Source: Vicinamibacteria bacterium (GTDB taxonomy: Bacteria; Acidobacteriota; Vicinamibacteria; Fen-336). Taken from it: a DNA stretch of 64,000 nt. Below, in pieces: positions 27,825 to 41,068 of the stretch (positions are counted from its first letter, which is position 1; the number at the start of each line of letters is the position of its first letter). A program made the translations under genes and the position numbers. The notes beneath the pieces are model-generated. The model did no database searches and had not been told where the DNA came from. It saw nothing but the letters and a program-made list of their open reading frames with translations. The stretch covers positions 2,355 through 66,354 of the forward strand of contig DATBIO010000272.1 in assembly GCA_036556965.1 (NCBI GenBank). Direction: 5' to 3'.

Positions 27825-29843
27825 CTAGGAGAGCCAGCGGGCGAGCCACCCCAGCACTTCCCCGTACCAGTGGCGGGAGTTCTGGGGCTTCAGGATCCAG
27901 TGGTTCTCGTCCGGGTAGTAGACGAGGCGTGCGGGCACGCCCTTGGCCTTGAGCACCCCGTAGAGCTCCAGGCCCTGGGTCACGGGCACGCGGTAGTCGC
28001 GCTCGCCGTGCAGGACCAGCATGGGCGTCCGGAAGCCGGCCGCGTAGCGGTTGGGGCTCCACCTCTCCACGTTGGCGAGGTTGGTGAAGGGGTAGCCGCC
28101 GTAGGAATGCTGGCGGCCGAAGCTGGTGTCGGAGGCGGACTGCCCGAGCAGGCTGTACACGCCGGCGTGGCTGACCAGCGCCTTGAAGCGGTCGGTATGG
28201 CCGGCGATCCAGTTCACGAGGAAGCCGCCGTAGGAGCCGCCGGCGGCGGCCATGCGCGCGGGGTCCACCGAGCCCTCCGCGATCAAGGCGTCCGTGGCCT
28301 TCATCACGTCCTCGAAGGGCTTGTCGGGGTGGGCGCCCAGGATGCTCTCCACCCAGGCCTGACCGAAGCTGGAGGAGCCGTGGAAGTTGACCATGGGCAC
28401 CACGTAGCCGGGGGCGGCGAAGACCAGGGGGTTCCAGCGGAAGTGGAAGGTGTCGCCGAACGTGCCCACCGGCCCGCCGTGGACCAGGTGGACGAGCGGG
28501 TACTTCGTGCCCTTGCGGAAGCCGGGCGGGTAGGCCACGAACATCTGCACCTCGTCCCCGCCCGCGCCGCGGAAGGTCTTCTCCTCCACGGGGCCGATGG
28601 CCAGCCCCGCCATCAGCGCGTCGTTCACGCGCGTGAGCGCGCGCGGGGAGGTGCCGTCGAGCTTCACCGCCCACAGCTCGGGCGGGTGGGTGAGGTCCTG
28701 GCGCTGGAACACCACCTCGCCCTGGGGTGTGACCTCCGCGCCGGCCACCGTGCCCCCGCGGTGGACGAGGCGCAGCGGCCCACCGGAGGCGGGCACGGCG
28801 TAGACGTTCGTGCGCCCGCGGACCTCGGCCAGGACCACCAGGGACCTGCCGTCGGCCGTCCACGCCCAGTGGCCGGCGGACGCGTCGAGGGCCGGGGCCT
28901 CGGTCAGGGTGGTGGTGGCGCCCGTGGCCAGCTCCATCACCGCCAGCCGCGTGTAGTCGGGCCAGCCCTCGGCCTTGCGCTGGAGACCGTAGGCGATGTG
29001 CCCGCCGTCGGGGCTGAACCGGGGATCCTCGTCGTCGGCGGGGTTGCCCGCGGTCAGGTTCCGCGCCTCGCCCCCCGTCGCCGGCACCAGGAAGAGGTCG
29101 GAGTTGAGGGCGGGGTAGGGCTCGGCCGTGCTGTTGGCGGCGAAGACGATCGCGCTCCCGTCCGGGGCGATGCTGAAGGAGCCCGCGCCGCCCTGCAGCC
29201 CGAAGTAGCGCCGGGAGCCGGGGAGCAGGTCGGTGACCTTGCGCGAGGACACGTCCACCACGAAGAGGTGCGGGTACTCGCCCGCGCCGAGCCACCGGTC
29301 CCAGAAGCGGAAGAGCCGATTCTCCGTGGCCACCGCCTTGACCTTGTTCTTCTCCCGCGCCTCCAGCTCCTTCTTCGTGGCCTCGATGGTCTCGGCGCCG
29401 GCGATGACGTGGGAGACGAAGGCGATGCGCGCGCCGTCGGGGAACCAGGCGGGGTCCGACACGTCACGCGGCATCTCGGTGACGCGCTCGGCCTCGCCCC
29501 CGTCCACGGCCAGGACGTACAGCTGGGCCGCGGGGTCGCCGTCACGCTTGGAGACGAAGGCCAGGCGGCGCCCGTCGGGGCTCCAGGCGGGCGAGCCGTC
29601 GGAGGCCTTGTTGAAGGTCAGGCGGCGGGCGGGCCCCCCGGCCGTGGGCACCAGCCACAGGTCCGCGTTGCCGCGGTTCTCCTCCATGTCGTACGTGGTC
29701 ACGCCGTAGGCCGCCCACCGGCCGTCGGGAGAGACGGCGGGGGTGCCCACGCGCTGGATCTGCCAGAGCACGTCGGCGGTGAGCGGCTTGCCCTCGGCGG
29801 GCGCCGCGGCTTGCGCGAGCACGAGCAGGGCGGCAGCGATCAT
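27825..29843 (-). CDS. S9-family serine peptidase (prolyl oligopeptidase / acylaminoacyl peptidase type; N-terminal beta-propeller + C-terminal alpha/beta hydrolase)
   Basis: Signal peptide MIAAALLVLAQAAAPAEG. Repeated WSPDG/FSPDG propeller blades. Nucleophile elbow GGSYGG and catalytic His near the C-terminus. Confidence 0.85.
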   Translation of the reverse strand: MIAAALLVLAQAAAPAEGKPLTADVLWQIQRVGTPAVSPDGRWAAYGVTTYDMEENRGNADLWLVPTAGGPARRLTFNKASDGSPAWSPDGRRLAFVSKRDGDPAAQLYVLAVDGGEAERVTEMPRDVSDPAWFPDGARIAFVSHVIAGAETIEATKKELEAREKNKVKAVATENRLFRFWDRWLGAGEYPHLFVVDVSSRKVTDLLPGSRRYFGLQGGAGSFSIAPDGSAIVFAANSTAEPYPALNSDLFLVPATGGEARNLTAGNPADDEDPRFSPDGGHIAYGLQRKAEGWPDYTRLAVMELATGATTTLTEAPALDASAGHWAWTADGRSLVVLAEVRGRTNVYAVPASGGPLRLVHRGGTVAGAEVTPQGEVVFQRQDLTHPPELWAVKLDGTSPRALTRVNDALMAGLAIGPVEEKTFRGAGGDEVQMFVAYPPGFRKGTKYPLVHLVHGGPVGTFGDTFHFRWNPLVFAAPGYVVPMVNFHGSSSFGQAWVESILGAHPDKPFEDVMKATDALIAEGSVDPARMAAAGGSYGGFLVNWIAGHTDRFKALVSHAGVYSLLGQSASDTSFGRQHSYGGYPFTNLANVERWSPNRYAAGFRTPMLVLHGERDYRVPVTQGLELYGVLKAKGVPARLVYYPDENHWILKPQNSRHWYGEVLGWLARWLS

Positions 29844-29888
29844 CGGGCCTCCTCCCGGCGGGGGTCCTGGCCGTTCACGCCGCGGCGA

Positions 29889-30377
29889 TCAGGGGCGGGG
29901 GGCCCCGGCGGCGGCGATGCACTCGATCTCCACGCGCGCGCCGAGGACGAGGCCCCCGACGCCCAGGGCGCTGCGCGCCGGCTTGTTGCGCGGGAAGTAC
30001 TCGCGGTAGACGCGGTTCATGGCCTCCCACTCCGCGACGTCCGCCAGCATGACCGTGCACTTCACCACGCGCTCCAGCGAGGACCCGTTCTCCTCGAGCA
30101 CGCGCTTGATGTTCTCGAGCGTCTGCCGCGTCTCGCCCTCGATGCCCCCCGGCGCCAGCTCCCGGCGGCCGGGCAGCACGCCCAGCGCCCCGGAGAGGAA
30201 GAGGAGATCGCCCACGCGGACGGCCTCGGAGTACGGCGGGTTGGCGGCCGCCCGCGCGGGGGACGTGAGGTAGGCCACCTCCGGCGGGGCGCGGCGCGAG
30301 GCACAGGCGACGGTGGCCATGAGCGCGGCCAGGGCCGCGAGCCGCCTGGGAGTCCCCCCGAGCACGGCCCCAAGCAT
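29889..30377 (-). CDS. RidA/YjgF (reactive-intermediate deaminase) family protein with N-terminal signal extension
   Basis: C-terminal RidA core (PPYSEAVRVGDLLFLSGALG ... VKCTVMLAD..EWEAMNRVY). ~45-aa hydrophobic N-terminal extension. Start ATG 30377 (alternative ATG 30401). Confidence 0.7.
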   Translation of the reverse strand: MLGAVLGGTPRRLAALAALMATVACASRRAPPEVAYLTSPARAAANPPYSEAVRVGDLLFLSGALGVLPGRRELAPGGIEGETRQTLENIKRVLEENGSSLERVVKCTVMLADVAEWEAMNRVYREYFPRNKPARSALGVGGLVLGARVEIECIAAAGAPRP

Positions 30378-30417
30378 ATCGAAGGCGGGGCGGTGGGGCA
30401 CGGGCGCCGCGACGTCC

Positions 30418-31296
30418 TCAGCGCCGGCGCCGCCACCGCGCGAGGACGCGCCGGAAGTCGTCGGGGAGCGGGCTCTCCACGCGCACGACGCCCTCGCCCC
30501 CCGGCGGGCGGAAGCCGAGGACGGCCGCGTGCAGCATCTGGCGCGGGGCGGCCGGGCCCTTCTCCGGACCGTAGACCGCGTCGCCGACCACGGGCAGCCC
30601 CACGTGCGCGAGGTGCACGCGGATCTGGTGCTGGCGCCCGGTGGCGAGCTGGACCTCGAGCAGGGCGCCCTCCGCGAACCGCTCGCGCACGCGCCAGCGC
30701 GTGAGGGCGGCGTGGGCGCCCTCGCCCGCGCGGGCCACCCGGCGGCGGCCGGCCACGTAGGCGTCGGCCAGGGGCAGGTCCACCTCGCCCTGCTCCGCGC
30801 GTGGACGGCCGGAGACGAGGGCCAGGTAGCGGCGCTCGACGCGGTGCGCGCGGAAGAGGGACTGCAGGTGGGCGCGCGCCTCCCGGCTCAGGGCCAGGGC
30901 CAGGGCGCCCGAGGTGTCACGGTCCAGGCGGTGGACGGGATGGACGTAGGCGCGCCGCGGCCGCAGCCGCCGCACGTACTCCTGCACCCGCCGCAGGACG
31001 GTGTCCTCGTCGCGGGCCTCCGGCGAGGAGGCCACGCTGAGCAGGCCCGCCGGCTTGTCCACCACCAGGACGTGGCCGTCCTCGTACAGCACGGGAAGGG
31101 AGAGCCGCGCGCGCGGCAGGGCGCGGCGGTTGGGGTCCCAGGCCACGGCCGCGGAGGCGGCCACGGAGAGCCCGGGCTCCCGGGCCAGGCGGCCGTCCAC
31201 CGTCACCTGGCCCTTCTCGATGACCTCGCGCGCCTTGCGCCGCGAGAGCCCGGGATGGCGGCGCACGAGGAGGACGTCGAGGCGCGTGGCGCTCAC
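30418..31296 (-). CDS. RluA-family pseudouridine synthase
   Basis: GTG 31296 overlapping the upstream TGA. S4-like N-terminus then catalytic HRLDRDTSG motif. The 597-aa six-frame ORF is over-extended. Confidence 0.8.
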   Translation of the reverse strand: MSATRLDVLLVRRHPGLSRRKAREVIEKGQVTVDGRLAREPGLSVAASAAVAWDPNRRALPRARLSLPVLYEDGHVLVVDKPAGLLSVASSPEARDEDTVLRRVQEYVRRLRPRRAYVHPVHRLDRDTSGALALALSREARAHLQSLFRAHRVERRYLALVSGRPRAEQGEVDLPLADAYVAGRRRVARAGEGAHAALTRWRVRERFAEGALLEVQLATGRQHQIRVHLAHVGLPVVGDAVYGPEKGPAAPRQMLHAAVLGFRPPGGEGVVRVESPLPDDFRRVLARWRRRR

Positions 31297-32174
31297 TCGC
31301 GGAGGCCGCGCGCGTCGTCCCACGCCGCCGGGTCCTGGCCGAAGTACTCGGCCAGCACGGCGTACACCTCGGCATGGTGGCGCCGCAGGGGCTGGGGGAC
31401 CTCGAAGAACGCCTCCACCGCCACCGGCCAGAACTCCACGGGATCGTCCGCGCCGTAGTCGTCGATGACCGACCGGCCGCGCTCGAGCCGCTTCATCTCG
31501 CGGGCGGCCAGGGCGACCCATTCCTCCGCGCGCGCCGCCGTCATCCCCGCGGGTATCCCGTCGAAGTGGGTGGCCTCCACGTCCAGGAGGTGGGCGAACT
31601 CGTGATAGCCGACGTGGTAGGCGTCGTCGGAGGTCTCGAAGCTCTCCTCGAGGGCGGGCAGCGACAGGATGAGGGTGCCCCAGCCATGCGCCTGGCCGGC
31701 CAGCTCCGCGTTCTCGAACGAGTAGTCCCGGTCGAAGTCCTGGGGGTAGAGCAGGACCTCCGTCACCTGCGTCCAGCGGAAGGCGGGCCAGGCCAGGCTC
31801 AGGCTGGCCGCGGAGGCGGCCACCAGCAGGCGATGCTCGTCGGTGACCTCGACCTCGACGCCGGTCACGGGCGTGTCGGCCAGGAACGACCGCACGGCCT
31901 GCTCGAAGAGGGCGCGCTCGCGCGCGGGCAGGCGCTCGTAGTGGTCGGACGCCTCCAGCAGGAACCGGCGCCAGCGCTCGGGGAAGGGGGCGGCGAGCAG
32001 GGCCTCGCGGCGCCGCTCGCGGCGCCGGGCGTGGGCCGCCGCTCCCCCCGCGGCCGCCCCCGCGGCCAGGCTTCCCGCCCACGCTCCCGGCGTCCCGAAG
32101 AGGAGGGCGCCCACCGCGGCCCCGGCGAGAGCGCCGAGGGCGGTCGTGCCCGCCAGCCGTGCGGCCTCGCTCAC
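31293..32174 (-). CDS. MtfA-like (peptidase M90) zinc-dependent peptidase
   Basis: GTG 32174 overlapping the upstream stop (GTGA). HEFAH zinc motif (YHVGYHEFAHLLD). N-terminal TM/hydrophobic segment. Confidence 0.7.
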   Translation of the reverse strand: MSEAARLAGTTALGALAGAAVGALLFGTPGAWAGSLAAGAAAGGAAAHARRRERRREALLAAPFPERWRRFLLEASDHYERLPARERALFEQAVRSFLADTPVTGVEVEVTDEHRLLVAASAASLSLAWPAFRWTQVTEVLLYPQDFDRDYSFENAELAGQAHGWGTLILSLPALEESFETSDDAYHVGYHEFAHLLDVEATHFDGIPAGMTAARAEEWVALAAREMKRLERGRSVIDDYGADDPVEFWPVAVEAFFEVPQPLRRHHAEVYAVLAEYFGQDPAAWDDARGLRE

Positions 32175-33127
32175 GCGTGCCGGGCGAGGAGCCGCCGCAG
32201 CACCGCGGCATCCACGTTGCCGCCCGTCACCACCACCGCCGTGGGACCGTCCGCGCGCACGCGCCCCATCGCCACCGCGGCGGCGGCGACGGCGCCCGCG
32301 CCCTCGGCCACCACCTGGTCGTGGGCGAGCAGGGCCACCATCGCACGCTCGAGCTCGTCCTCCGGCACCACCTCCATCGCGTCGAACAGGTGGCGGTGCC
32401 GGAAGGCGATCTCGCCGATGCCGCCGGCCAGGCCGTCGGCCAGGGTGGGCGCGGCCGCGTACTCGGTGAGGGCGCGGCCCTGCCGGACCGACTCGCGCAG
32501 CGCGGGCGAGGCCTCCGGCTGCACGGCCACCACCCGCACGCGGGGGGCGCGCGCCTTGAGCACGGCGGCCATGCCGCTGATGAGGCCGCCCCCGCCGACC
32601 GGTACCACGACGGCGGCCAGGTCCGGCCGGGCCTCCAGCAGCTCCAGGGCCACCGTGCCCTGGCCGGCGGCGACGCGGTCGTCCTCGAAGGCGTGGGCCA
32701 TGACCGCGCCCGTCTCCTCCGCGAACCGCTCCGCGGCGGCGTGCGCGTCGTCGTAGGTCTCGCCCCCCTCGTGCACGGTCACGGGGAACGCGCGCAGCTT
32801 GTCGACCTTCGCCCGCGGCGCGCTGCGCGGCACGAAGAGCGTCGCCCGCACGCCGCCCACGGTGGCGGCGGCGAAGGCGACGCCCAGGGCGTGGTTCCCC
32901 GCGGAGGCGGCCACCACCCCGCGGCGGCGCTGCGCCTCGGGCAGCGTGGCCAGCAGGTGCGTGGCCCCGCGTACCTTGAACGAGCCCGTGGGCTGCCAGC
33001 ACTCGAGCTTCAGCAGGACCTCGCCCGCGCCGCGCAGGGCGAAGGACGGGCGCAGCGGCGTGGGGGGAAGGTGCGGCGCCACCACCGCGCGGGCGGCCTC
33101 CACCGCCTCCACGGAGAGCACGCTCAT
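32171..33127 (-). CDS. PLP-dependent threonine/serine dehydratase (threonine ammonia-lyase / serine racemase family, fold type II)
   Basis: ATG 33127 overlapping the upstream stop (ATGA). PLP-lysine motif SFKVRGA. Glycine-rich loop VPVGGGGLISG. 318 aa. Confidence 0.85.
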   Translation of the reverse strand: MSVLSVEAVEAARAVVAPHLPPTPLRPSFALRGAGEVLLKLECWQPTGSFKVRGATHLLATLPEAQRRRGVVAASAGNHALGVAFAAATVGGVRATLFVPRSAPRAKVDKLRAFPVTVHEGGETYDDAHAAAERFAEETGAVMAHAFEDDRVAAGQGTVALELLEARPDLAAVVVPVGGGGLISGMAAVLKARAPRVRVVAVQPEASPALRESVRQGRALTEYAAAPTLADGLAGGIGEIAFRHRHLFDAMEVVPEDELERAMVALLAHDQVVAEGAGAVAAAAVAMGRVRADGPTAVVVTGGNVDAAVLRRLLARHA

Positions 33128-35955
33128 GGGCGCACGGGGCCGGCGGCCAGGAGGTCCAGCCGCGGCTCCCCGCAGCGGGCGGCGATGGCGGAGGCCGTGC
33201 GGTCGCGCAGGTCCACCAGCGCGTGCCAACCCTCGCCCTCCGGCCTCAGGGGGGGGCCGATCCAGAGGTGGATGTGGCCCCGGCGGGGGCGCCACCCGCC
33301 GCCGCGCAGCACGTGCCGCGTGCCCTGGAGGGCGAGGGGGAGGATGGCCACCTCCGCCGCCGCCGCGCTCTTGAAGGCGCCCAGGCGGAAGGGGCGCAGC
33401 CCCGTGGCCGGGGTGAAGGTGCCCTCGGGGAAGAAGAGCACGTTGCGCCCGGCGTGGAGCGCCTCGTCGATGGTGCGCGCGTCGTTGAGGCTCTGCTCCG
33501 TGTCCCAGCGGTCCACCGTCAGCTGCCGGGTGCGGCGCACGAAGGAGCCGACGAACGGCCAGCGCCGGACCTCGGCCTTGGCCACGAACGCGAAGTCGAG
33601 GGGAAGGAGCGCCATCAACGCGGGGACGTCGGCGTAGGAGGCGTGGTTCGAGCACAGCACCAGCGGTCCGGGCACGGCGAGGCGCTCGAGCCCCTCCACG
33701 GTCAGCCGCTGGCCCAGGAGCCGGAAGAACAGGCGCGCGCAGAAGCGTCCCGTGCGCGGGGCCCACGTGCGGGGCAGGACCACGGCCAGGACCCAGGCCA
33801 GCAGGCCCACCGCGGCCACGGCCGCGGCGGCGGCCCCCGCGTAGAGCAGGCCCGGCACGGCGCGCAGCCGCCGCCGCGCCTCGTTCACGGCCACGGCCGC
33901 GAAGAGCCGGGAGCGGGCGCCCGGGGAGAGGCCGCGCTCGGCGCCGAGCGCTCCGCGCAGGTAGAGGTCGCGCGTGGCCGCCCGCCGGACCTTGCCGCTC
34001 GGCGTCTTGGCCACCACGCCCGGCGCCACCAGCCGCACGTCGTCGGGGGGCACGCCGGTCACGCCGCCGACCCGCTCCACCACGGCCGCGGCCAGGCGCT
34101 CGCGCGCGGGCCCGTCCGTCTCGCGCGTCTCCGCCACCACCACCAGGGCCTCCGTGCCCAGCGCGGCCTGGGCCACGCCGAAGGCGGCCACGCAGCCCTT
34201 GCGGATGCCCTCCACGGAGGCCGCCGCCTCCTCGACCTCCTGCGGGACCAGGTTGCGTCCGCCCTTGATGATGAGGTCCTTGCGCCGGCCGGCGACGTGC
34301 ACCTCGCCGTCGGCCACGAAGGCGAGGTCGCCGCTGTCCAGCCAGCCGTCGCCCACCGCGACCTCCGCCGTCGCTTCCGCGTTCCGGTAGTAGCCGGCCA
34401 TGCTCGAGGGACCCCGGAAGACGAGCCGTCCCACCCGGCCGGAAGGGAGCTCCGCGCCGTCGTCGTCCAGGATGCGGACCTCGTGGCCGGGCAGCGCCGT
34501 GCCCACGGAGACGAAGCGCAGCGGCTCCTTCTCGCCCGGGGCGGGGGCCTCGACGCGCCCGTCCCCCGAGAACGGCTCGCGCGCGGCCAGCGTCACGCGT
34601 GGCCCGCGTCCGGGGGGCGGGAAGCAGAGCCCGACCGCGCTCTCCGCCAGCCCGTACACGGGCATGAAGGCCTCGCGGCGGAAGCCGTAGGGCGCGAACC
34701 GCCGCGCGAAGCGGTCCATGGTGTCGGGGCTCACCGGCTCGGCGCCGTTCAGCGCGCAGCGCCACGAGGAGAGGTCCAGCCCCTCCAGGGCGCGGTCGGG
34801 GATGCGGCGCACGCAGAGCTCGTAGGCGAAGTTGGGGGCGGCGGACATGGTGGCCTGGCGCTCGTGGATGGCCCACAGCCAGCGCTCGGGCCGCGCCAGG
34901 AAGGCCAGCGGCGACTGGATGTCGATGGGGACGCCGTGGACGATGCAGAACAGCCAGGAGCCGATGAGGCCCATGTCGTGGTAGAGCGGCAGCCAGGTCT
35001 GACCGACGTCGGTGGGCGCGAGACGCAGCCCGGCGGCGATGGCGCGGATGTTGGCGAGCAGGTTGTCGTGCGTGAGGAGCACGCCCTTGGGCATGCCCGT
35101 GCTCCCCGACGTGTACTGGATGAAGGCGGGATCCGCGCCGGCGCCCTCCGGCGCCGGCCAAGGGCCCCCCTCGGCGGCCAGCTCGTCGGCGGTGGCCACC
35201 GCGCGCAGGGAGGGCACGCGCGGACGCAGCAGGCCCACGACGGGGCGCGCGCGCTCGACCGTCACCAGGAGGCGGGCCTCGGCGTTGGCCAGGATGCCGG
35301 CCTGGCGGAGGGCGTACTCCTCCAGGCGGTCGAGACGCACGGGCGGGTACAGGGGGACGGGGATGGCCCCCAGGAGCAGGATGCCCTGGAAGGTGCGCAG
35401 GAAGTCCAGGCCGGTGGGGAGGACGAGGGCCACGGTGTCGCCCCTGCCCACCCCGCGCGCGCGGAGGCCGGCCGCCACCGAGGAGGCCTCGGCGAAGAGG
35501 CCGCCGTAGCTCAGCGCGACCTCGCGCCCGTCGTCCTCGCGGAGCCAGGCGTGCAGGCGCTCGGGCTCGGCCTGCGCCCGCAGCCAGAGCGCGCCGTGGA
35601 CGGTGGCGGCCTCCGGCAGCGGCGCCGGCTCGCGCGGCACCGCGGCCCTTCCCGGCCGCGGCCTCGCGGCGGCCTCGCCGGACTCCGCCTCCAGGAGGGC
35701 CCGGGCCAGGCCCTCCGGCGTGTCGATCTGCAGGCAGCGGTCGTCGAGACGGCGGCCGAAGGCGGCCTCCAGCCGGAGCATCAGCTCCACGCGCTCCAGG
35801 CTGCCCAGGCCGACCTGCCGCTCGAGGGAGGCCTGGGGGGCCACCGCCCCCGCCGCGCGCGCGCCACCGAGCTCCCGCGCGAGGTCGCGCAGGACCTCCA
35901 GCACCGTGCCCAGCGCCGCCTCGTAACTGGAGGTGGCCGCCGTCGTTTCGGTCAC
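33124..35955 (-). CDS. Tri-domain acyl carrier protein / fatty-acyl-AMP ligase (AMP-binding) / 1-acyl-sn-glycerol-3-phosphate acyltransferase (PlsC-type) fusion
   Basis: GTG 35955 with TACAGT 6 nt upstream (leaderless-type). Phosphopantetheine attachment motif GLGSLERVELM. Adenylation motifs YTSGSTGMPKGV and GD..RRKDLIIKGGRN. Acyltransferase H(X)4D motif CSNHASYADV and FPEGT. 943 aa. Confidence 0.8.
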   Translation of the reverse strand: MTETTAATSSYEAALGTVLEVLRDLARELGGARAAGAVAPQASLERQVGLGSLERVELMLRLEAAFGRRLDDRCLQIDTPEGLARALLEAESGEAAARPRPGRAAVPREPAPLPEAATVHGALWLRAQAEPERLHAWLREDDGREVALSYGGLFAEASSVAAGLRARGVGRGDTVALVLPTGLDFLRTFQGILLLGAIPVPLYPPVRLDRLEEYALRQAGILANAEARLLVTVERARPVVGLLRPRVPSLRAVATADELAAEGGPWPAPEGAGADPAFIQYTSGSTGMPKGVLLTHDNLLANIRAIAAGLRLAPTDVGQTWLPLYHDMGLIGSWLFCIVHGVPIDIQSPLAFLARPERWLWAIHERQATMSAAPNFAYELCVRRIPDRALEGLDLSSWRCALNGAEPVSPDTMDRFARRFAPYGFRREAFMPVYGLAESAVGLCFPPPGRGPRVTLAAREPFSGDGRVEAPAPGEKEPLRFVSVGTALPGHEVRILDDDGAELPSGRVGRLVFRGPSSMAGYYRNAEATAEVAVGDGWLDSGDLAFVADGEVHVAGRRKDLIIKGGRNLVPQEVEEAAASVEGIRKGCVAAFGVAQAALGTEALVVVAETRETDGPARERLAAAVVERVGGVTGVPPDDVRLVAPGVVAKTPSGKVRRAATRDLYLRGALGAERGLSPGARSRLFAAVAVNEARRRLRAVPGLLYAGAAAAAVAAVGLLAWVLAVVLPRTWAPRTGRFCARLFFRLLGQRLTVEGLERLAVPGPLVLCSNHASYADVPALMALLPLDFAFVAKAEVRRWPFVGSFVRRTRQLTVDRWDTEQSLNDARTIDEALHAGRNVLFFPEGTFTPATGLRPFRLGAFKSAAAAEVAILPLALQGTRHVLRGGGWRPRRGHIHLWIGPPLRPEGEGWHALVDLRDRTASAIAARCGEPRLDLLAAGPVRP

Positions 35956-36202
35956 CGCCGCACTGTACCAGCGTTGCCGTGCGCTATGCTGGGCCGTGCC
36001 GCGCGCCGTCACCATCCGGGAGATCGAGCGGATCTTCGCCGTCACCGACCCCCTGGGGATCCACCGCGAGGCCGTCGTCATCCCGCTGGCCATGCGCAGC
36101 CCGGGCGGAGTGCGGCGGCTGCCCGGGGGCAGGATCGAGATCGTGGTGGACGCGGAGGCCGACTTCGAGCAGTGGGTGGCCGGGCTGCCCGCCCGGATCG
36201 CC

Positions 36203-36754
36203 TCAGTCGGGTAGCGCGGCCAGGGCCCGCCGGTAGGCGAGGAGGTCGCCCTCGCTGAAGAGGGCGAAGCGGACGACGGACACGGTGGAGCCCGCCTGCA
36301 ACGCCGCGCGCACGGTGGCGAGGGCAACCGCGGCCGCCTCCTCCACGGGATAGCCGTAGGCGCCCGTGGAGATGCTGGGGAACGTGACCGAGGCCAGGCC
36401 GCGCGCGGCGGCCAGGTCCAGGCAGTTGCGATAGCAGCGGGCCAGGGTCTCCGCCTCGCCCGCCCCGCCGCCGCGCCACACCGGACCCACGGTGTGGATG
36501 ACGTGGCGGGCGGGGAGTTGCCCGCCCCCGCTCACGACGGCCTCGCCGGGAGGGAGGGGACCCTGGCGCTCCACGATGCGCCGGCACTCCTCCTTGATGG
36601 CGGGGCCCCCGGCCCGGTGGATGGCACCGTCAACGCCGCCCCCTCCCATGAGCCCGGAGTTGGCGGCATTGACGATGGCGTCGCTCGCTGCGCGCGTGAT
36701 GTCCTCACGCGCCAGCTCGATGCGACCCGAGCCGAATGTTCGGACGACCAGCTT
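36203..36754 (-). CDS. Macro-domain protein (MacroD/YmdB-like ADP-ribose processing); start codon unresolved
   Basis: Conserved macro motifs GRIELAREDITRAASDAIVNAANSGLMGGGGVDGAIHRAGG and C-terminal GxSVxFPxISTGxYGYP. The first in-frame ATG (36649) lies inside the conserved fold. There is no ATG/GTG/TTG between the in-frame HU stop (36860-62) and 36649. Confidence 0.6.
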   Translation of the reverse strand, partial: KLVVRTFGSGRIELAREDITRAASDAIVNAANSGLMGGGGVDGAIHRAGGPAIKEECRRIVERQGPLPPGEAVVSGGGQLPARHVIHTVGPVWRGGGAGEAETLARCYRNCLDLAAARGLASVTFPSISTGAYGYPVEEAAAVALATVRAALQAGSTVSVVRFALFSEGDLLAYRRALAALPD

Positions 36755-36859
36755 CCCTCGGGCGCCCCGCGCGCGGCGCGCCCTCCTCGACCCGGCGGGA
36801 CGTGCGGCCGACGCCGCGCGGCCGCACCGACCGCGGGGTGTGGCAGGGAATCGGTCCGG

Positions 36860-37147
36860 TTACTTGCTTCCCAGCGCCGCGTCCTTGGCCGCCTTGGCCA
36901 CCACGAACTTCAGGCGCTTGCGGGCGGGGATGCGGATTTCCTGGCCGGTCTGCGGATTGCGGCCCATGCGCGCCTTGTAGCTGCGCACGACCAGCTTGCC
37001 GATGCCGGGGATGGTGAAGCCGTTCTTGGCTTCCTTGTGGGCCATGGTGGCCAGCGCCTCGAGATACGCGGCCGACTGCTTCTTGGAGATGTCGATCTTC
37101 TCGGCCATGGCAGCCACGATCTTCGACTTGGTCATCGCCTTTGCCAT
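36860..37147 (-). CDS. hup: DNA-binding protein HU (HU/IHF family)
   Basis: 95 aa; MAKAMTKSKIVAAMAEK...GFTIPGIGKLVVRSYKARMGRNPQTGQEIRIPARKRLKF; strong AAGGAGGA RBS 8 nt upstream of ATG 37147. Confidence 0.9.
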   Translation of the reverse strand: MAKAMTKSKIVAAMAEKIDISKKQSAAYLEALATMAHKEAKNGFTIPGIGKLVVRSYKARMGRNPQTGQEIRIPARKRLKFVVAKAAKDAALGSK

Positions 37148-37261
37148 CGTGTCAATCCTCCTTGGAAGGCATCTGGTGGGCGGGGGCCCTGATCGGAAGG
37201 CGCGGGCATTCTACATGCCCGCCGCGGCCGCGTGTCAACCGGTTGTTTTCGAGCGGGGCCG

Positions 37262-37582
37262 CTAGCGCGGCGGCGGCGGGCGGAGGAGGAACACCGTCTC
37301 CCCGGGACGGCCCAGGCCCAGCTCCTCGCGCGCCAGGCGCTCGATGGCGCGCGGATCGGCGCGCAGGGCGCCGATCTCCGCGGCCAGGCGGCGGTTCTCC
37401 GCGCGCAGCCCTTCGATCTCCGCCAGCAGGGCCTCCGCGCGCTCGCGCTGCCGCACGAGCTGCAGGATGCCGCGGTCTCCGAAGAGCGAGCCCACGAGGA
37501 GGGCGAGGAGGGCGATGACACAGGTCAGGACGGCGGCCTTGCGCGGCAGGCGCGCCTCGGCCCGCGCCTTGTCGTCCCTCAT
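37262..37582 (-). CDS. ftsB: Septum formation initiator FtsB/DivIC family protein
   Basis: ATG 37582 with GGGAAGG RBS. N-terminal TM anchor (AAVLTCVIALLALLVGSLF) followed by a coiled coil (LQLVRQRERAEALLAEIEGLRAENRRLAAEIGALR). Confidence 0.7.
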   Translation of the reverse strand: MRDDKARAEARLPRKAAVLTCVIALLALLVGSLFGDRGILQLVRQRERAEALLAEIEGLRAENRRLAAEIGALRADPRAIERLAREELGLGRPGETVFLLRPPPPR

Positions 37583-37634
37583 CCCGTCGCCTTCCCGTTC
37601 GCGCAAGAGGGAAACGTTAGCACGCCCTTCGCGC

Positions 37635-38072
37635 TCACGACCCGAGCAGCCCCAGCCGGCGCGCCCCCTGGCGCGCGCCCGCGGCCTGGTAGCGCTTGAG
37701 GAGGTCCACCAGCTCCTGGTTGACCTGCTTCAGCCGCCGCAGCCCCTTGCGGAAGGCGCGCGACCGGGTGAGAAGCGCGCGCGCCTCCTCCACCCTCTCC
37801 TCGCCCAGGTAGGCGAAGCTGCCCGCCCCCCCGCTGCGGCGGGAGAGCACGTAGTAGGGGCCGTGCCCGCGGCCCTCGGCGCAGGCGCATCCCGCCTTGC
37901 CGCAGCGCCCGAAGCGCGTGAAGAGCGACCCCGCCACCTGCGCCCGCAGGGCGATGAGGGAGCGCACGAGCACGCGCTGCTCGGCCAGGCGCGCGCGGAT
38001 GCGGCGCCGCAGCGCGGCGGGCGCGGCGGCGCGCGCGCGGGGCGTGCGGACGGCGGCGGTGGCGGCAGGCAT
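37635..38072 (-). CDS. Hypothetical zinc-ribbon protein of the DUF6788-like type (RCGKxGCxC ... GHGPYYVL motif)
   Basis: ATG 38072; 145 aa; conserved-looking Cys cluster GRCGKAGCACAEGRGHGPYYVL followed by a basic/helical C-terminal half; coding-like GC3. Confidence 0.55.
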   Translation of the reverse strand: MPAATAAVRTPRARAAAPAALRRRIRARLAEQRVLVRSLIALRAQVAGSLFTRFGRCGKAGCACAEGRGHGPYYVLSRRSGGAGSFAYLGEERVEEARALLTRSRAFRKGLRRLKQVNQELVDLLKRYQAAGARQGARRLGLLGS

Positions 38073-38077
38073 TGTCG

Positions 38078-38114
38078 TACAGTGCGTCTGTAAGAAAGTG
38101 CTGTAAGACTACAG
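38078..38114. promoter_or_regulatory. Pair of nested inverted repeats TACAG-N5-CTGTA and CTGTA-N4-TACAG (plus direct repeat TGTAAGA x2) in the divergent DUF6788 / EVE-cutA promoter region; TAGAAT -10-like box at 38141-38146
   Basis: Seen directly in a locally AT-richer 60-bp stretch between the two divergent start codons (38072 and 38167). Confidence 0.35.
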
Positions 38115-38166
38115 GCAAGAGACGGCCGCGGTCAAGGGCCTAGAATGGGCCCCGGAGGCACGGGCC

Positions 38167-38565
38167 ATGTGGCTGCTGAAGACGGAGCCGGGCGCCTACG
38201 GCTACGACGACCTGGAGCGCGAGGGACGGACGGTGTGGGACGGGGTGACCAATCCCGTGGCCCTGAAGAACCTCCGCGCCATGAAGGCGGGAGACCGGGT
38301 GTTCGTGTACCACACGGGGGACGAGAAGGCGGTGGTGGGGACGGCGGAGGTGGTGCGCGAGGCGTACCCGGATCCCAGGGCGGGCGACCCGCGGCGCGTG
38401 GTGGTGGACGTGCGCGCCACCGGCCGCCTCGCCCGCCCGGTGGCCCTGGCGGAGATCAAGCAGATGGCCGTCTTCCGCGACAGCCCCCTCGTGCGGCAGG
38501 GCCGCCTCTCGGTGGTGCCCGTCACCGCCGCCCAGGGCGCCGCCCTCGAGAAGGGACGCGCGTGA
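38167..38565 (+). CDS. EVE-domain (PUA-like) protein
   Basis: ATG 38167 with GGAGG RBS. MWLLKTEPGAYGYDDL...WDGVTNPVALKNLRAMKAGDRVFVYHTG...AVVGTAEVVREAYPDP is the canonical EVE fold signature. Confidence 0.85.
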   Translation: MWLLKTEPGAYGYDDLEREGRTVWDGVTNPVALKNLRAMKAGDRVFVYHTGDEKAVVGTAEVVREAYPDPRAGDPRRVVVDVRATGRLARPVALAEIKQMAVFRDSPLVRQGRLSVVPVTAAQGAALEKGRA

Positions 38566-38885
38566 GCGCCGAGCGGGTGGTCGCGCTCTCCACGGTGGGG
38601 AGCGCGGAGGCGGCGGAGGAGATCGCCCGCGCCCTGGTGGAGCGGGGCGTGGCCGCCTGCGTCAACGTCGTGCCCGGGATCGTCTCCTTCTACCGGTGGC
38701 AGGGCGAGCTCCAGCGCGACGGGGAGTGGCTGCTCGTGATCAAGACGCGCGCCGAGCGCTTCGAGGCGCTGCGCGCGGCCCTGGTGGCCCTCCACCCCTA
38801 CGAGGTGCCGGAGGTGCTCGCGCTGCCGGTGGTGGCCGGGCACGAGCCCTACCTGCACTGGCTGGACGAGAGCGTTCGTCCCTAG
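38562..38885 (+). CDS. cutA: Divalent-cation tolerance protein CutA (PII-like trimer fold)
   Basis: GTG 38562 overlapping the EVE TGA (GTGA). Motifs ALVERGVAACVN, SFYRWQGE, WLLVIKT, ALHPYEVPE. Confidence 0.85.
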   Translation: MSAERVVALSTVGSAEAAEEIARALVERGVAACVNVVPGIVSFYRWQGELQRDGEWLLVIKTRAERFEALRAALVALHPYEVPEVLALPVVAGHEPYLHWLDESVRP

Positions 38886-38915
38886 GCGCGGCCGCGCGCG
38901 GAGCGGGTCCCCGGC

Positions 38916-40052
38916 CTAGAGCCGGGAGAGGGCCCCGCGAAGATCCGCGATGAGGTCCTCGGCGTCCTCGCAGCCCACGCTGATGCGCACCAGGCCGTCG
39001 GTGATGCCGAGGGCATCGCGCTCCGCCTGCGTGTAGCCGGCGTGCGTCATGGTGGCGGGGTGGGAGATCAGCGTCTCGATGCCGCCCAGGCTCTCGCCCA
39101 GCGAGCAGAGGCGCACGCCCTCCAGGACGCGTCCCGCCGCCGCGCGCGAGCCCAGCTCGAAGGAGATCATGGCCCCGAAGCCGCCGGCCTGCCGCTTGTG
39201 GACGTCGTGGCCGGGATGGTCGGAGAAGCCGGGCCAGAACACCTTCCGCACCTTGGGCTGGCCGCGCAGGAACTCCGCCACCACGCGGCCGTTCTGCTCG
39301 TGCCGCGCCATGCGCAGGGCCAGGGTCTTGGTGCCGCGCAGCACGAGCCAGGAGTCGAAGGGGGAGAGGATGGCCCCCGCCGCGTTCTGGTAGTACTGCA
39401 GCCACTGCGCGTGCTCCGCGGACTTCGCCACCACCACCCCGCCCACGCTGTCGGAATGGCCGTTGAGGAACTTGGTGGTGGAGTGCACGACGAGGTCGGC
39501 GCCGAGGGCCAGGGGCTTCTGGAAGCAGGGGCTCATGAAGGTGTTGTCCACCACGAAGAGGGCCTTCCGGCGGCGCGCGGCCTCGCCCAGGGCCGCGATG
39601 TCGCAGACCTTCATCAGGGGGTTGGTGGGGGTCTCGATCCACAGCATCTGGAAGTCGCCCGCCGCGCGCTCGAAGGCGGCGGCGTCGCTGGCCTCCAGGA
39701 AGGCGAAGTCGACGCCGTAGCGCGCCAGGACCTTGGTGAAGAGGCGGTGCGTCCCCCCGTAGACGTTGTCGGAGACCACCACCCGCTGGCCCGACGTGAC
39801 CATGGACAGGACCGCGTTGGTGGCGGCCATGCCCGAGGCGTAGCAGTAGGCGTCGGCGCCCCCCTCCAGGGCGGCCAGGTTCTTCTCCAGGGCGCGCCGC
39901 GTGGGGTTCTGCGTGCGCGCGTACTCGTAGCCCTTGTGCCGGCCGATGCCCTCCTGCACGTAGGTGGAGGTCTGGTAGATCGGGGTGACCACCGCGCCCG
40001 TGGTGGGGTCCGGCTCCTGGCCGGCGTGGATGCAGTCCGTGGCGAAGCCCAT
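38916..40052 (-). CDS. Cystathionine gamma-lyase / gamma-synthase family PLP enzyme (Cys/Met metabolism)
   Basis: ATG 40052; PLP-lysine context HSTTKFLNGHSD, ETPTNP, typical CGS/CGL fold type I sequence. Confidence 0.85.
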   Translation of the reverse strand: MGFATDCIHAGQEPDPTTGAVVTPIYQTSTYVQEGIGRHKGYEYARTQNPTRRALEKNLAALEGGADAYCYASGMAATNAVLSMVTSGQRVVVSDNVYGGTHRLFTKVLARYGVDFAFLEASDAAAFERAAGDFQMLWIETPTNPLMKVCDIAALGEAARRRKALFVVDNTFMSPCFQKPLALGADLVVHSTTKFLNGHSDSVGGVVVAKSAEHAQWLQYYQNAAGAILSPFDSWLVLRGTKTLALRMARHEQNGRVVAEFLRGQPKVRKVFWPGFSDHPGHDVHKRQAGGFGAMISFELGSRAAAGRVLEGVRLCSLGESLGGIETLISHPATMTHAGYTQAERDALGITDGLVRISVGCEDAEDLIADLRGALSRL

Positions 40053-40060
40053 GCCGCCTC

Positions 40061-41017
40061 TCAGAGGTTCTCGAAGACGCCCTTGCCCAGGTAGCGCTCG
40101 AAGCCGTCGGGGAAGACGGTGACCACGCTGGCCCCGCGGGGCAGGCGGGCCGCCACCGCGCGCGCGGCGTGCGCGGCCGCCCCCGCGGAGCCCCCCACCA
40201 GCAGGCCCTCGCGCCGCGCCAGCTCGCGCACGGCGGCGAAGGAGGCGTCGTCGGTCACGGTCACGATCTCGTCCACCAGCGCGCGGTCCAGGGCCGCGGG
40301 CCAGAACGAGTTGCCGATGCCCTCCACCTTGTGTGGACCGGGCGGCCCTCCCCCCCAGATGGACCCCTGGGGCTCCACCAGCACCGCGTGCACGCGCGGG
40401 TCGCGCTCCTTGAAGTAGCGGGCCACCCCGGTGAAGGTGCCGCCCGTGCCCGCCCCGATCACCACCGCCGCGGGCAGGTGCCCCAGCTGCTCGTGGATCT
40501 CCACCGCCGTGGTGCGCTCGTGGAAGGCGGGGTTGGCGGGGTTCTCGAACTGCTGGGGCACGAAGGCCCCGGGGATGCTCCTCGCCACCTCGCGCGCCCG
40601 GGCGATGGCGCCCTCGATCCCCGCCTCCGTGGGCGTGAGCACGATCTCGGCCCCCAGCACGTTCATGACCGCGGTCTTGGGCCCCACGAACTTCTCCGGC
40701 ACCACCACCACCACGCGGTAGCCGCGGCTGATGCCGATGAGGGCCAGGCCCACGCCGGTGTTGCCCGCGGTGGGCTCCACGATGGTGGCTCCGGGGGCGA
40801 GCAGGCCCGCCTCCTCCGCGGCCAGCACCATCCCCAGGGCGGCGCGGTCCTTCACGCTACCGCCGGGGTTGAGGAACTCCAGCTTGGCGAAGACGGAGGC
40901 CCCGCCCGCGGGCACGTAGCGCTGGAGGTGGAGGAGGGGGGTGCGCCCGACGAGGTCGAGCACGCCGCGCGCGATCCCGCCCGCGCGCTCGGTGTCGGCC
41001 TCCGCGCGCGCGCTCAT
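40061..41017 (-). CDS. Cysteine synthase / cystathionine beta-synthase-like PLP enzyme (fold type II)
   Basis: PLP-lysine motif NPGGSVKDRAALGM. GTGGT glycine loop GAGTGGTFTG. 8 bp upstream of the gamma-lyase gene (operon). Confidence 0.85.
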   Translation of the reverse strand: MSARAEADTERAGGIARGVLDLVGRTPLLHLQRYVPAGGASVFAKLEFLNPGGSVKDRAALGMVLAAEEAGLLAPGATIVEPTAGNTGVGLALIGISRGYRVVVVVPEKFVGPKTAVMNVLGAEIVLTPTEAGIEGAIARAREVARSIPGAFVPQQFENPANPAFHERTTAVEIHEQLGHLPAAVVIGAGTGGTFTGVARYFKERDPRVHAVLVEPQGSIWGGGPPGPHKVEGIGNSFWPAALDRALVDEIVTVTDDASFAAVRELARREGLLVGGSAGAAAHAARAVAARLPRGASVVTVFPDGFERYLGKGVFENL

Positions 41018-41068
41018 GGCGTCACGTTAGCGCAGGCCGCGAAGGGGGGTCAACGTTGCCGCGCCGCC

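Follow-up and report, generated by a model that had tools for sequence, protein, structure and literature searches.

The window analysed here, a stretch of 64,000 nucleotides, carries on its minus strand a string of four genes. The lead gene, G1 (33124..35955), encodes a 943-aa fusion with the architecture ACP-FAAL-TM helix-PlsC/LPLAT. It is followed by G2 (32171..33127), which encodes a fold-type II PLP enzyme of 318 aa, by G3 (31293..32174), which encodes an M90 (MtfA-like) zinc peptidase of 293 aa, and by G4 (30418..31296), the 292-aa product of which joins an S4 domain to an RluA-family pseudouridine synthase. The genes are chained by stop/start overlaps, ATGA at the G1/G2 junction (33124..33127) and GTGA at the G2/G3 (32171..32174) and G3/G4 (31293..31296) junctions, and these coordinates agree with the original prediction, whose domain calls were likewise all confirmed by Pfam, including that of a RidA homologue. 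The latter, a Rid-family protein, is encoded on the same strand at 29889..30377, adjoining the four genes but outside the unit. On the other side of G1 lies a divergent, conserved ORF of 72 aa (35996..36214, plus strand), for which homologues were found and which has no Pfam match.

The carrier domain of G1 (PP-binding, residues 22-87, 35695..35892, minus strand) matches PF00550 with 23.7 bits against a cutoff of 20.8. Its phosphopantetheine serine, Ser52 (codon 35800-35802, minus strand), lies in a G-[LIF]-[DG]-S-L motif and is conserved in 75/75 aligned sequences, so that the serine motif characteristic of carrier domains, (D/G)S(L/I), is present. The adenylation domain extends over residues ~130-671 (33943..35568, minus strand), and residues 130-523 match the AMP-binding family PF00501 with E = 9.5e-67. 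Its best PDB matches are FAALs, namely the E. coli FAAL 3pbk (E = 8e-90), 3kxw and FadD32, compared to 2e-31 for FadD13. The FAAL-specific insertion aligns without gaps with residues 327-478 of 3pbk, whereas CoA ligases align with the insertion query only from query position ~52-68 onward. The NCBIfam FAAL subfamily model PRK09192 gave 440 bits, which is under its cutoff of 600. The adenylate-forming motifs, the insertion and the greater closeness to FAALs than to acyl-CoA synthetases identify the domain as FAAL-type, and the SGSTGxPKG motif and K655 are invariant in the 75 sequences.

A hydrophobic helix at residues 709-727 of G1 (33775..33831, minus strand; Kyte-Doolittle mean of 2.59 over 19 residues) is predicted to be the membrane anchor ahead of the acyltransferase. 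The PlsC/LPLAT domain itself (residues 750-876, 33328..33708, minus strand) matches PF01553 with E = 5.4e-25 and combines this putative anchor with both motifs expected of such enzymes, HX4D and (F/Y)xEGT, here NHxxxxD (H771, D776) and FPEGT (842-846). Since H771, D776 and E844 are also invariant in the 75 sequences, every catalytic residue of G1 is retained throughout the alignment. The acceptor-specific models all scored under their cutoffs: the AGPAT model TIGR00530 gave 89 (cutoff 103), the OlsA models 73-78 (300) and the E. coli PlsC model 33.6 (501). The three domains with their invariant catalytic residues thus support the earlier reading of G1 as a self-contained enzyme that would activate, carry and transfer an acyl group. 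Its homologues, which are ~943 aa long, form more than 8000 protein clusters, and members of the ACP-FAAL-LPLAT family are present in at least ~600 species-level genomes from many phyla, with no annotation beyond 'AMP-binding protein'. Very long G1 ORFs of 1016-1156 codons in relatives were considered as carriers of an ElbD-like extra domain and turned out to be only upstream ORF or start-codon extensions.

Comparison with known systems places G1 close to E. coli Aas, in which the acyl group passes via an ACP thioester to lysophospholipid (PMC13170283), the same chemistry as we propose for G1. Both are membrane proteins that unite a fatty-acid-activating adenylation domain with a PlsC-type acyltransferase. 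However, the domain order of Aas, PlsC-AAS, is reversed in the ACP-FAAL-TM-PlsC arrangement of G1, the carrier is fused in G1 and a bound free ACP in Aas, and the adenylation domain of G1 is FAAL-type, not Aas-type. Having neither the PlsC-then-AAS order nor an equivalog score, G1 falls outside Aas proper, and the Aas models scored far under their cutoffs (PRK08043, 20 against 886; PRK08633, 162 against 1221; PRK06814, 151 against 1349). At 8/81 loci G1 is closely preceded by a gene for an MFS transporter, an arrangement that recalls lplT-aas. LplT is the partner of E. coli Aas, whereas the transporters upstream of G1 are ATG22/UMF1-like, not LplT.

Fusions of FAAL with LPLAT/AGPAT domains are already listed in FAAL surveys (Patil et al. 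2021 eLife, PMC8460268; FAALPred 2026, PMC12820801), where they are treated as a PKS/NRPS-independent use of FAALs, described by architecture only, with no function or acceptor demonstrated. Compared to these surveys, the N-terminal cis-ACP and its invariance are spelled out here for G1. Acyl-activating, ACP and AGPAT-like domains in one polypeptide are also found in the ether-lipid enzyme ElbD of Myxococcus xanthus, of which a review notes that most homologues in other phyla have no reductase domain (PMC9131029). Unlike ElbD, from which we set it apart by description and not by sequence, G1 has no FAR/reductase (NAD_binding_4) domain, nor have its 75 aligned relatives, and no elbB, elbC or elbE-type neighbours occur in the sampled gene tables of G1 relatives. 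With both the FAR1-like domain and the elb operon context missing, G1 is not of the ElbD type.

The three downstream products belong to different families. G2 matches PALP (PF00291, E = 2.6e-70) and carries the PLP lysine motif SFKVRGA and a GGGG loop, as expected of the dehydratase fold; it has no regulatory ACT domain and no signal peptide. Its best PDB match is the catabolic threonine dehydratase 2gn0 (E = 1.8e-56), followed by serine racemases. Fold and motifs are thus shared with the TdcB/serine racemase group, yet all 17 dehydratase-type NCBIfam models compared, TdcB, EutB, IlvA and BhcB among them, scored under cutoff, and G2 is most likely a TdcB/serine-racemase-like dehydratase or racemase. 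G3 matches Peptidase_M90 (PF06167, E = 5.2e-56) with 190.4 bits against a gathering cutoff of 26.2, and together with its HEFAH zinc motif (HExxH) this makes it an M90 peptidase; the structural matches are MtfA 3dl1 and 9srw. Its similarity to the MtfA of E. coli and Klebsiella is nonetheless weak (PRK15410, 39.8 against a cutoff of 400), and G3 has a hydrophobic N-terminal segment at residues 7-25, whereas MtfA is cytoplasmic and is not known to have such a segment. G4 contains the S4 and PseudoU_synth_2 domains of Pfam and passes the RluA-family model TIGR00005 (208.9 bits, cutoff 192.7), with the RluC and RluD equivalog models under their cutoffs; judged by these profiles, it is most likely an RluC/RluD-like rRNA pseudouridine synthase.

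The close packing of these genes is also seen in relatives of the clade. The G1/G2 ATGA overlap recurs in L081, L084 and L089-L092, and the 4-bp G2/G3 overlap in 4/5 sampled relative contigs having both genes. At the G3/G4 junction of relatives the genes overlap by 1, are 7 apart or have other genes inserted between them. In relative L082, which is without G2, G1 and G3 themselves overlap by 4 bp. Among the relatives, 12/14 focal gene pairs are at most 10 nt apart, compared to 15/56 background co-directional pairs (Fisher p = 9e-5), and an exact 4-bp overlap is found in 7/14 focal pairs versus 10/56 background pairs (p = 0.03). A generic terminator scan detected no terminator-like sites in 29500-36500, and over the full 64-kb window neither Rfam nor tRNA scans gave a match. 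The location on one strand, the stop/start overlaps, the lack of an internal terminator and the spacing below background indicate that G1-G4 probably form one tightly coupled, co-transcribed unit, which sustains the single transcript proposed in the original prediction. One possible reason for the tightness of G1-G2-G3 and for the G1/G3 overlap is selection to keep the expression of G1 and G3 coupled.

Transcription of the unit appears to start immediately ahead of G1. A -10-like hexamer, TACAGT (35962..35967, minus strand), precedes the G1 GTG at 35955 with 6 nt between them, in leaderless-type geometry, which we define as a conserved -10 hexamer (TAnnnT) 5-8 nt before ATG/GTG with no Shine-Dalgarno sequence; the TACAGT-N6-GTG of G1 has these features. 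The motif TA[N]AGT is rare, with only 5 occurrences on both strands of the window (128 kb), all intergenic, one of them being a perfect TTGACA-17-TAGAGT. Moreover, TAGAGT, TACAGT or TAGACT stands 6-10 nt ahead of the G1 start in 7/8 relatives. The rarity and the conservation of the motif both speak for the leaderless promoter that had been predicted, and the G1 mRNA would accordingly be leaderless, or nearly so, and initiated from a conserved -10 element. The window and relative L082 also have an extended -10 (TGn), which is not conserved among the other relatives. A generic sigma-70 scan of 29500-36500 returned no promoter, which is uninformative because the genome is GC-rich, and the motif-specific analysis was therefore used. 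The divergent 72-aa ORF, kept in 6/8 relatives, is preceded by TATGCT-N5-GTG, and only 40 bp between it and G1 are available for two divergent promoters. The frame of the ORF listed upstream of G1 at 35979-36236 is not the right one; the small ORF that is conserved there spans 35996-36214.

The Rid-family gene begins 17-41 bp downstream of G4, with its start at 30377 or alternatively at 30401 or 30365. Its product matches Ribonuc_L-PSP (Pfam) and scores above the cutoff of TIGR00004. The N-terminus has a lipoprotein-type signal (RR, a hydrophobic run and TVAC), and the signal peptide and Cys are kept in 13/15 Rid homologues. Because this Rid subgroup has a lipoprotein signal peptide, the protein is probably not cytoplasmic, and the signal suggests that it is probably an exported lipoprotein; in this respect it differs from RidA proper (2-iminobutanoate/2-iminopropanoate deaminase), which is cytoplasmic. 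The gene is absent from this site in 8/8 relatives, and in the closest one, L081, an S9 peptidase gene directly follows the Rlu gene. The Rid gene is thus most likely a later insertion in this lineage, unrelated to the G1-G4 unit.

The best named relatives are Vicinamibacteria (Acidobacteriota), rather than Gemmatimonadota, a phylum named in the original prediction. Within the clade the gene order is well kept: G1-G3 adjacency is found in 8/8 relatives, and G3 is conserved in 8/8, G2 in 7/8 and G4 in 6/7. The exceptions are L082, where G2 is missing and AhpC stands between G3 and G4, L085, where an opposite-strand S10 peptidase gene separates the same two genes, and L087, which has a different gene at the G4 position. 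This conservation does not single out the four genes, since unrelated housekeeping genes (CGS, EVE, DUF6788, FtsB/DivIC and HU) are likewise kept in 8/8 clade relatives; those for HU, FtsB/DivIC and EVE are located upstream. Outside the clade the picture is different. The PLP enzyme and the M90 peptidase adjoin the fusion in only 2/80 genomes, the closest ones, which are Vicinamibacteria-like with G1 of 63-65% identity, and the expected co-occurrence was therefore limited to close relatives. In the other 78/80 genomes, from many phyla, none of G2, G3, G4 and RidA was found near the G1 orthologues within the available flanks (up to 10 kb per side); 76 distant G1 loci were scored, of which 56 had at least 3 kb of downstream sequence. 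Even L083, with a G1 61% identical, has radical-SAM and glycosyltransferase genes after G1 instead. Clustering of flanking ORFs at 81 G1 loci revealed no neighbour family in more than 11/81, the top clusters being shadow ORFs overlapping G1.

A similar restriction was seen from the side of the peptidase. The matches listed in a protein search with the M90 protein were all from the same clade (62-71% identity), and a metagenome scan with it returned one short frameshifted contig, also of this clade. Distant M90 contexts were for this reason sampled from 5 annotated plasmid/chromid loci, and FAAL, PlsC or PALP genes were beside the M90 gene at 0/5 of them, a count that is to be read with the incomplete plasmid annotation in mind. 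Taken together, the adjacency across distant genomes, beyond background synteny, that would mark a coherent operon was not observed for G1-G4.

It could be argued that the overlaps are a product of mis-assembly or mis-called starts and that the genes are separately initiated, as the DNA has 75-78% GC with plentiful alternative in-frame GTG/ATG starts and one public gene call places the G1 start 20 codons further upstream. However, the region 30252-37174 is 99.8-99.9% identical, gap-free, to contigs of four separate JGI metagenomes, so that the overlaps are real and not artefacts of one assembly. Independent gene calls on the near-identical contigs gave the same start codons for G2, G3 and G4 (318, 293 and 292 aa), the G1 start is consistent with homologue length (~943 aa), and these overlaps also appear in the gene calls of diverged relatives; we therefore regard an artefact as extremely unlikely. 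The original prediction had gone further and proposed a dedicated pathway to an N-acyl amino acid or amino-lipid, with the dehydratase serving the head group and RidA quenching the enamine on site. The family assignments behind this proposal are correct, the Rid gene does follow closely on the same strand, and PlsC-type enzymes are able to O-acylate lyso-aminolipids, yet a role for FAAL enzymes in making aminolipids is not established (PMC11631085) and Pfam revealed no N-acyltransferase (OlsB/GNAT-like) domain in the cluster. Of what a RidA partner of the dehydratase should show, the Rid fold is present, but the shared compartment and the conserved linkage are not: the Rid protein and 13/15 of its homologues have a lipoprotein signal and Cys, G2 has no signal, and the Rid gene is missing at the site in 8/8 relatives. 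On-site detoxification is thus not supported, and with the cluster unconserved outside one clade, its partners lacking in 78/80 genomes, the PLP gene missing in L082 and the Rlu gene separable, such a pathway is very unlikely.

A more restrained alternative is that G1, (G2) and G3 are a true Vicinamibacteria-specific module, for example for membrane lipid or lipopeptide remodelling, where the membrane-tethered peptidase and at times the PLP enzyme would work together with the acylating fusion, with G4 and RidA as bystanders. The recurring 4-bp overlaps of G1/G2 and G2/G3, the 4-bp G1/G3 overlap where G2 is missing, the focal spacing below background, the unbroken G1-G3 adjacency in the clade and the hydrophobic membrane segments in both G1 and G3 are all in line with it. 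Against it stand the unrelated genes that are equally syntenic in the clade, the 78 loci beyond the clade, at none of which G1 has an M90 or TdcB-like neighbour, the other genes that come next to the 61% identical G1 of L083, the unrelated neighbours of the distant M90 genes (5 loci) and the absence of a biochemical logic linking the three families in known pathways. We thus consider this alternative rather unlikely, and a more specific version of it, a translationally coupled clade-specific module of ACP-FAAL-LPLAT and M90, usually with the TdcB-like enzyme, that would make or remodel an acylated membrane component, is in our view improbable. If true, such a module would be the first case of a physiological role for the widespread FAAL-LPLAT fusions, and likewise for an M90 peptidase from outside the enterobacteria.

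The explanation that we favour, with reasonable though by no means full confidence, is that of a real, tightly packed and probably co-transcribed gene string, restricted to a Vicinamibacteria-like lineage of soil Acidobacteriota and functionally mixed, with an Aas-like lead enzyme. Most likely the four genes do not form one pathway, and we propose that inherited gene order and compaction of the genome have placed G2, G3 and G4 on the transcript of G1. As this case teaches, neither stop/start overlaps nor synteny within a clade should be taken to show a shared pathway. The operon is thus ordinary, and its notable gene is G1, a member of a widespread and usually stand-alone family. In the mechanism that its domains suggest, the FAAL domain would adenylate a free fatty acid and load the acyl group onto the phosphopantetheine attached to Ser52 in the N-terminal carrier domain of the same protein, and the membrane-anchored PlsC/LPLAT domain would hand it to a lyso-lipid on the cytoplasmic side of the inner membrane. 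G1 would then be a counterpart of E. coli Aas that is complete in itself, the function of Aas being lysophospholipid recycling and the incorporation of free fatty acids. If this is true, the family would provide a self-contained way of turning free fatty acids into membrane lipid that does not depend on CoA, and a common alternative to Aas/LplT and FadD/PlsB in environmental bacteria.

The region has a G+C content of 75-80% and long ORFs in all frames, so its gene calls need support. The four proposed minus-strand genes translate into clean proteins, and Pfam profile searches confirmed every family assignment of the original prediction: G1, the ACP-FAAL-LPLAT fusion (33124-35955, 943 aa), carries PP-binding (22-87), AMP-binding (130-523) and PlsC-type Acyltransferase (750-876) domains, G2 (32171-33127, 318 aa) is a PALP enzyme, G3 (31293-32174, 293 aa) belongs to Peptidase_M90 and contains HEFAH, and G4 (30418-31296, 292 aa) combines S4 and PseudoU_synth_2 domains. 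A Rid-family gene (29889-30377/30401, minus strand, Pfam) follows G4. The G1/G2, G2/G3 and G3/G4 junctions read ATGA, GTGA and GTGA, exactly the start/stop overlaps that had been described. Contigs of four different JGI metagenomes match window 30252-37174 without gaps at 99.8-99.9% identity, and independent gene calls on them reproduce the starts of G2, G3 and G4 together with the 4-bp overlaps; therefore, an assembly artefact is excluded and the overlaps are real. One public call starts G1 at an ATG 20 codons upstream, but since the lengths of G1 homologues group around 943 aa, we favour the start at 35955.

The idea of a single coupled transcript gains support from the packing of these genes in relatives. 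In the gene tables of seven related contigs, co-directional neighbour pairs within the four genes overlapped by 4 bp in 7/14 cases and lay no more than 10 nt apart in 12/14, against 10/56 and 15/56 for background pairs outside the four genes (Fisher, p = 0.03 and p = 9e-5, respectively). No terminator-like site was found in 29500-36500. Given this arrangement, co-transcription of G1-G4 can reasonably be inferred and the genes are probably translationally coupled.

The transcript was proposed to start from a leaderless promoter, TACAGT at 35967-35962 followed after 6 nt by the G1 GTG at 35955. A generic sigma-70 scan of 29500-36500 found no promoter. With both strands counted, the 64-kb window contains only five copies of the pattern TA[ACGT]AGT (637, 8608 and 35967 on the minus strand, 38078 and 56991 on the plus strand), all at promoter-like intergenic sites, and the copy at 637 is part of a perfect TTGACA-17-TAGAGT. 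The DNA upstream of G1 is poorly conserved (mean column identity of 47% among eight relatives with 61-73% protein identity), and a similar hexamer precedes the G1 start by 6-10 nt in seven of these eight, being TAGAGT or TACAGT in six and TAGACT in one. This comparative evidence, a rare motif retained in most relatives, supports a putative leaderless-type promoter ahead of G1. The exception is the related contig L087, which has neither the hexamer nor the small divergent ORF found upstream of G1 in the window, and in which a Macro-domain gene (5423-6004) overlaps the G1 start (6001) by 4 bp; the upstream boundary of the unit is thus variable, and G1 of L087 is presumably read through from the Macro gene. 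TAnnnT hexamers also lie 5-8 nt ahead of start codons at 41017, 16699 and 56946 (minus strand) and 35996 (plus strand), which suggests that leaderless mRNAs may be common in this organism. The start at 35996 belongs to the divergent ORF (35996-36214, plus strand, 72 aa), which has its own TATGCT-N5-GTG, begins only 40 bp from the start codon of G1 and has homologues in 6/8 clade relatives and no Pfam match; its stop overlaps the 3' end of a convergent Macro-domain gene. A mechanically called ORF at 35979-36236 is in the wrong frame and was rejected.

Conserved co-occurrence of the four genes across phyla did not hold. A scan in which each GTDB species was represented by one genome gave 597 confirmed G1 relatives, of which the best 80, with 39-65% full-length identity, were retrieved together with flanks of up to 10 kb per side; they come from Acidobacteriota, Gemmatimonadota, Nitrospirota, Methylomirabilota, Alpha-, Beta-, Gamma- and Deltaproteobacteria and others. 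With G2, G3, G4 and RidA as queries (tblastn, phmmer), cluster matches appeared only in the two closest relatives, L001 and L002 (G1 63-65% identical), and no partner gene stood in the cluster arrangement at the other 78 loci. Stray matches there were an unrelated, weak pseudouridine synthase on the opposite strand (L012) and an upstream Rid homologue (L059). Seventy-six non-clade loci could be scored, 56 of them with at least 3 kb downstream of G1, and clustering of all flanking ORFs gave no family common to more than 11/81 G1 loci. Therefore, G1 is normally a stand-alone gene.

Within the clade of Vicinamibacteria-like relatives (G1 61-73% identical), the gene order of six further contigs is G1-G2-G3-G4, but it varies in detail: G2 is missing from L082, where AhpC separates G3 from G4, an S10 peptidase gene on the opposite strand stands between the latter two in L085, and in L087 a different gene takes the place of G4. 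A G1 of 61% identity from a Gemmatimonadales MAG (L083) is followed by radical-SAM and glycosyltransferase genes. G3 is present in 8/8 relatives, G2 in 7/8 and G4 in 6/7. However, the whole surrounding block is syntenic, the window shares its genes upstream of G1 with these relatives, and the cystathionine-synthase-like, EVE, DUF6788, DivIC/FtsB and HU genes occur there in 8/8. Since these neighbours are equally syntenic, the adjacency of G1-G4 says no more about function than does a gene order that was simply inherited.

This block extends over window 36203-41026 and loci L001, L002 and L081-L087 in the order PAS/GGDEF-EAL sensor, (PALP), Cys/Met PLP enzyme, CutA1 and EVE on the opposite strand, DUF6788, DivIC/FtsB, HU, (Macro) and G1. 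The second PALP gene of the window (40061-41026) is paired with a Cys_Met_Meta_PP gene (38916-40052), probably as a transsulfuration pair. The divergent DUF6788/EVE intergenic region (38073-38166, plus strand) is locally AT-richer, contains TACAGT, a direct repeat of CTGTAAGA (present twice) and TAGAAT 20 nt ahead of the EVE ATG, and matches no Rfam family.

The proposed role of RidA in quenching the enamine released by the dehydratase is contradicted by the data. The Rid gene is missing at this position in all eight relatives, and in the closest, L081, the pseudouridine synthase gene is followed at once by the S9 peptidase gene that in the window lies behind RidA, so RidA was inserted in the lineage of the window. 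The N-terminus of this Rid protein (RR, a hydrophobic run, TVAC) aligns with classic lipoprotein signal peptides of homologues, which are 140-170 aa long and conserve the lipobox Cys in 13/15 cases; canonical RidA has about 125-130 aa. The protein is apparently an exported RidA-like lipoprotein, whereas G2 has no signal peptide. Thus it is unlikely that it quenches enamines for a cytoplasmic dehydratase. The Rid subgroup with a lipoprotein signal is large (Acidobacteriota, Gemmatimonadota, Gammaproteobacteria), and the gene may be preceded by a TATGCT-N7-GTG of its own (start at 30365).

A pathway for an N-acyl amino acid or amino-lipid finds no support either, as the partners are limited to the clade and Pfam detects no N-acyltransferase domain in any of the proteins. 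Known two-step aminolipid pathways require an N-acyltransferase, and FAAL has no established use in the synthesis of aminolipids (PMC11631085). G2 is closest to the catabolic threonine dehydratase TdcB and serine racemases but reaches none of the NCBIfam equivalog cutoffs. G3 is clearly an M90 peptidase (Pfam), with a hydrophobic N-terminus and only a distant resemblance to MtfA. G4 scores above the cutoff of the RluA-subfamily model and is an RNA modification enzyme of the housekeeping type.

One could argue that G1, G3 and in most cases G2 form a functional module specific to the clade, as their junctions are unusually tight and conserved and G1 and G3 overlap by 4 bp even in L082, where G2 is missing. 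The inherited synteny of the whole block makes us regard such a module as rather improbable. Neighbours of five distant M90 genes, a small sample on annotated plasmids or chromids, were unrelated. The best explanation, which we hold with moderate confidence, is a lineage-specific, compact operon of mixed function headed by a member of a widespread, uncharacterised ACP-FAAL-LPLAT family.

The adenylation domain of this lead enzyme is of the FAAL type. Among solved structures, E. coli FAAL 3pbk (8e-90), Legionella FAAL 3kxw and FadD32 match it best, while the acyl-CoA synthetase FadD13 reaches only 2e-31, and its FAAL-specific insertion region aligns gap-free with 3pbk, whereas CoA ligases align only after the insertion. 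Carrier Ser52, the SGSTGxPKG loop, the C-terminal Lys655, His771 and Asp776 of HX4D and Glu844 of FPEGT are invariant in 75 full-length members from many phyla, and a single strong hydrophobic helix (709-727) lies ahead of the acyltransferase domain. G1 would adenylate a free fatty acid, load the acyl group as a thioester onto its own carrier domain in cis and, through the LPLAT domain, transfer it to a lyso-lipid. Such chemistry is that of E. coli Aas (PMC13170283), but G1 is not its orthologue, since it has the opposite domain order and a fused carrier and stays far under the cutoffs of the Aas models. The AGPAT and OlsA models give G1 similar scores, both below threshold, and so favour neither acceptor. 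An ATG22/UMF1-type MFS transporter gene directly upstream of the fusion gene in 8/81 loci, usually on the same strand (e.g. L073, 6173-7444), recalls the LplT-Aas pairing, although the transporter itself is not LplT.

Orthologues from cultured proteobacteria (Methylobacterium nodulans pMNOD02, Burkholderia sp. JP2-270 p2 and Cupriavidus sp. USMAHM13) lie amid stress- or dormancy-type genes (BON domain, Hsp20, KdpBC, MgtA, acsA-pdh), and in Cupriavidus a second AMP-binding gene overlaps the start of the fusion gene. RefSeq labels the orthologues of these three genera only as 'AMP-binding protein'. Earlier papers point out FAAL-LPLAT fusions as an architecture without explanation (PMC8460268; PMC12820801), there is a mention of 'ElbD-like homologues lacking FAR1' in non-myxobacterial phyla (PMC9131029), and we found no functional study of such a fusion in the literature. 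The interest of the locus lies in its uncharacterised lead enzyme, and not in the operon.
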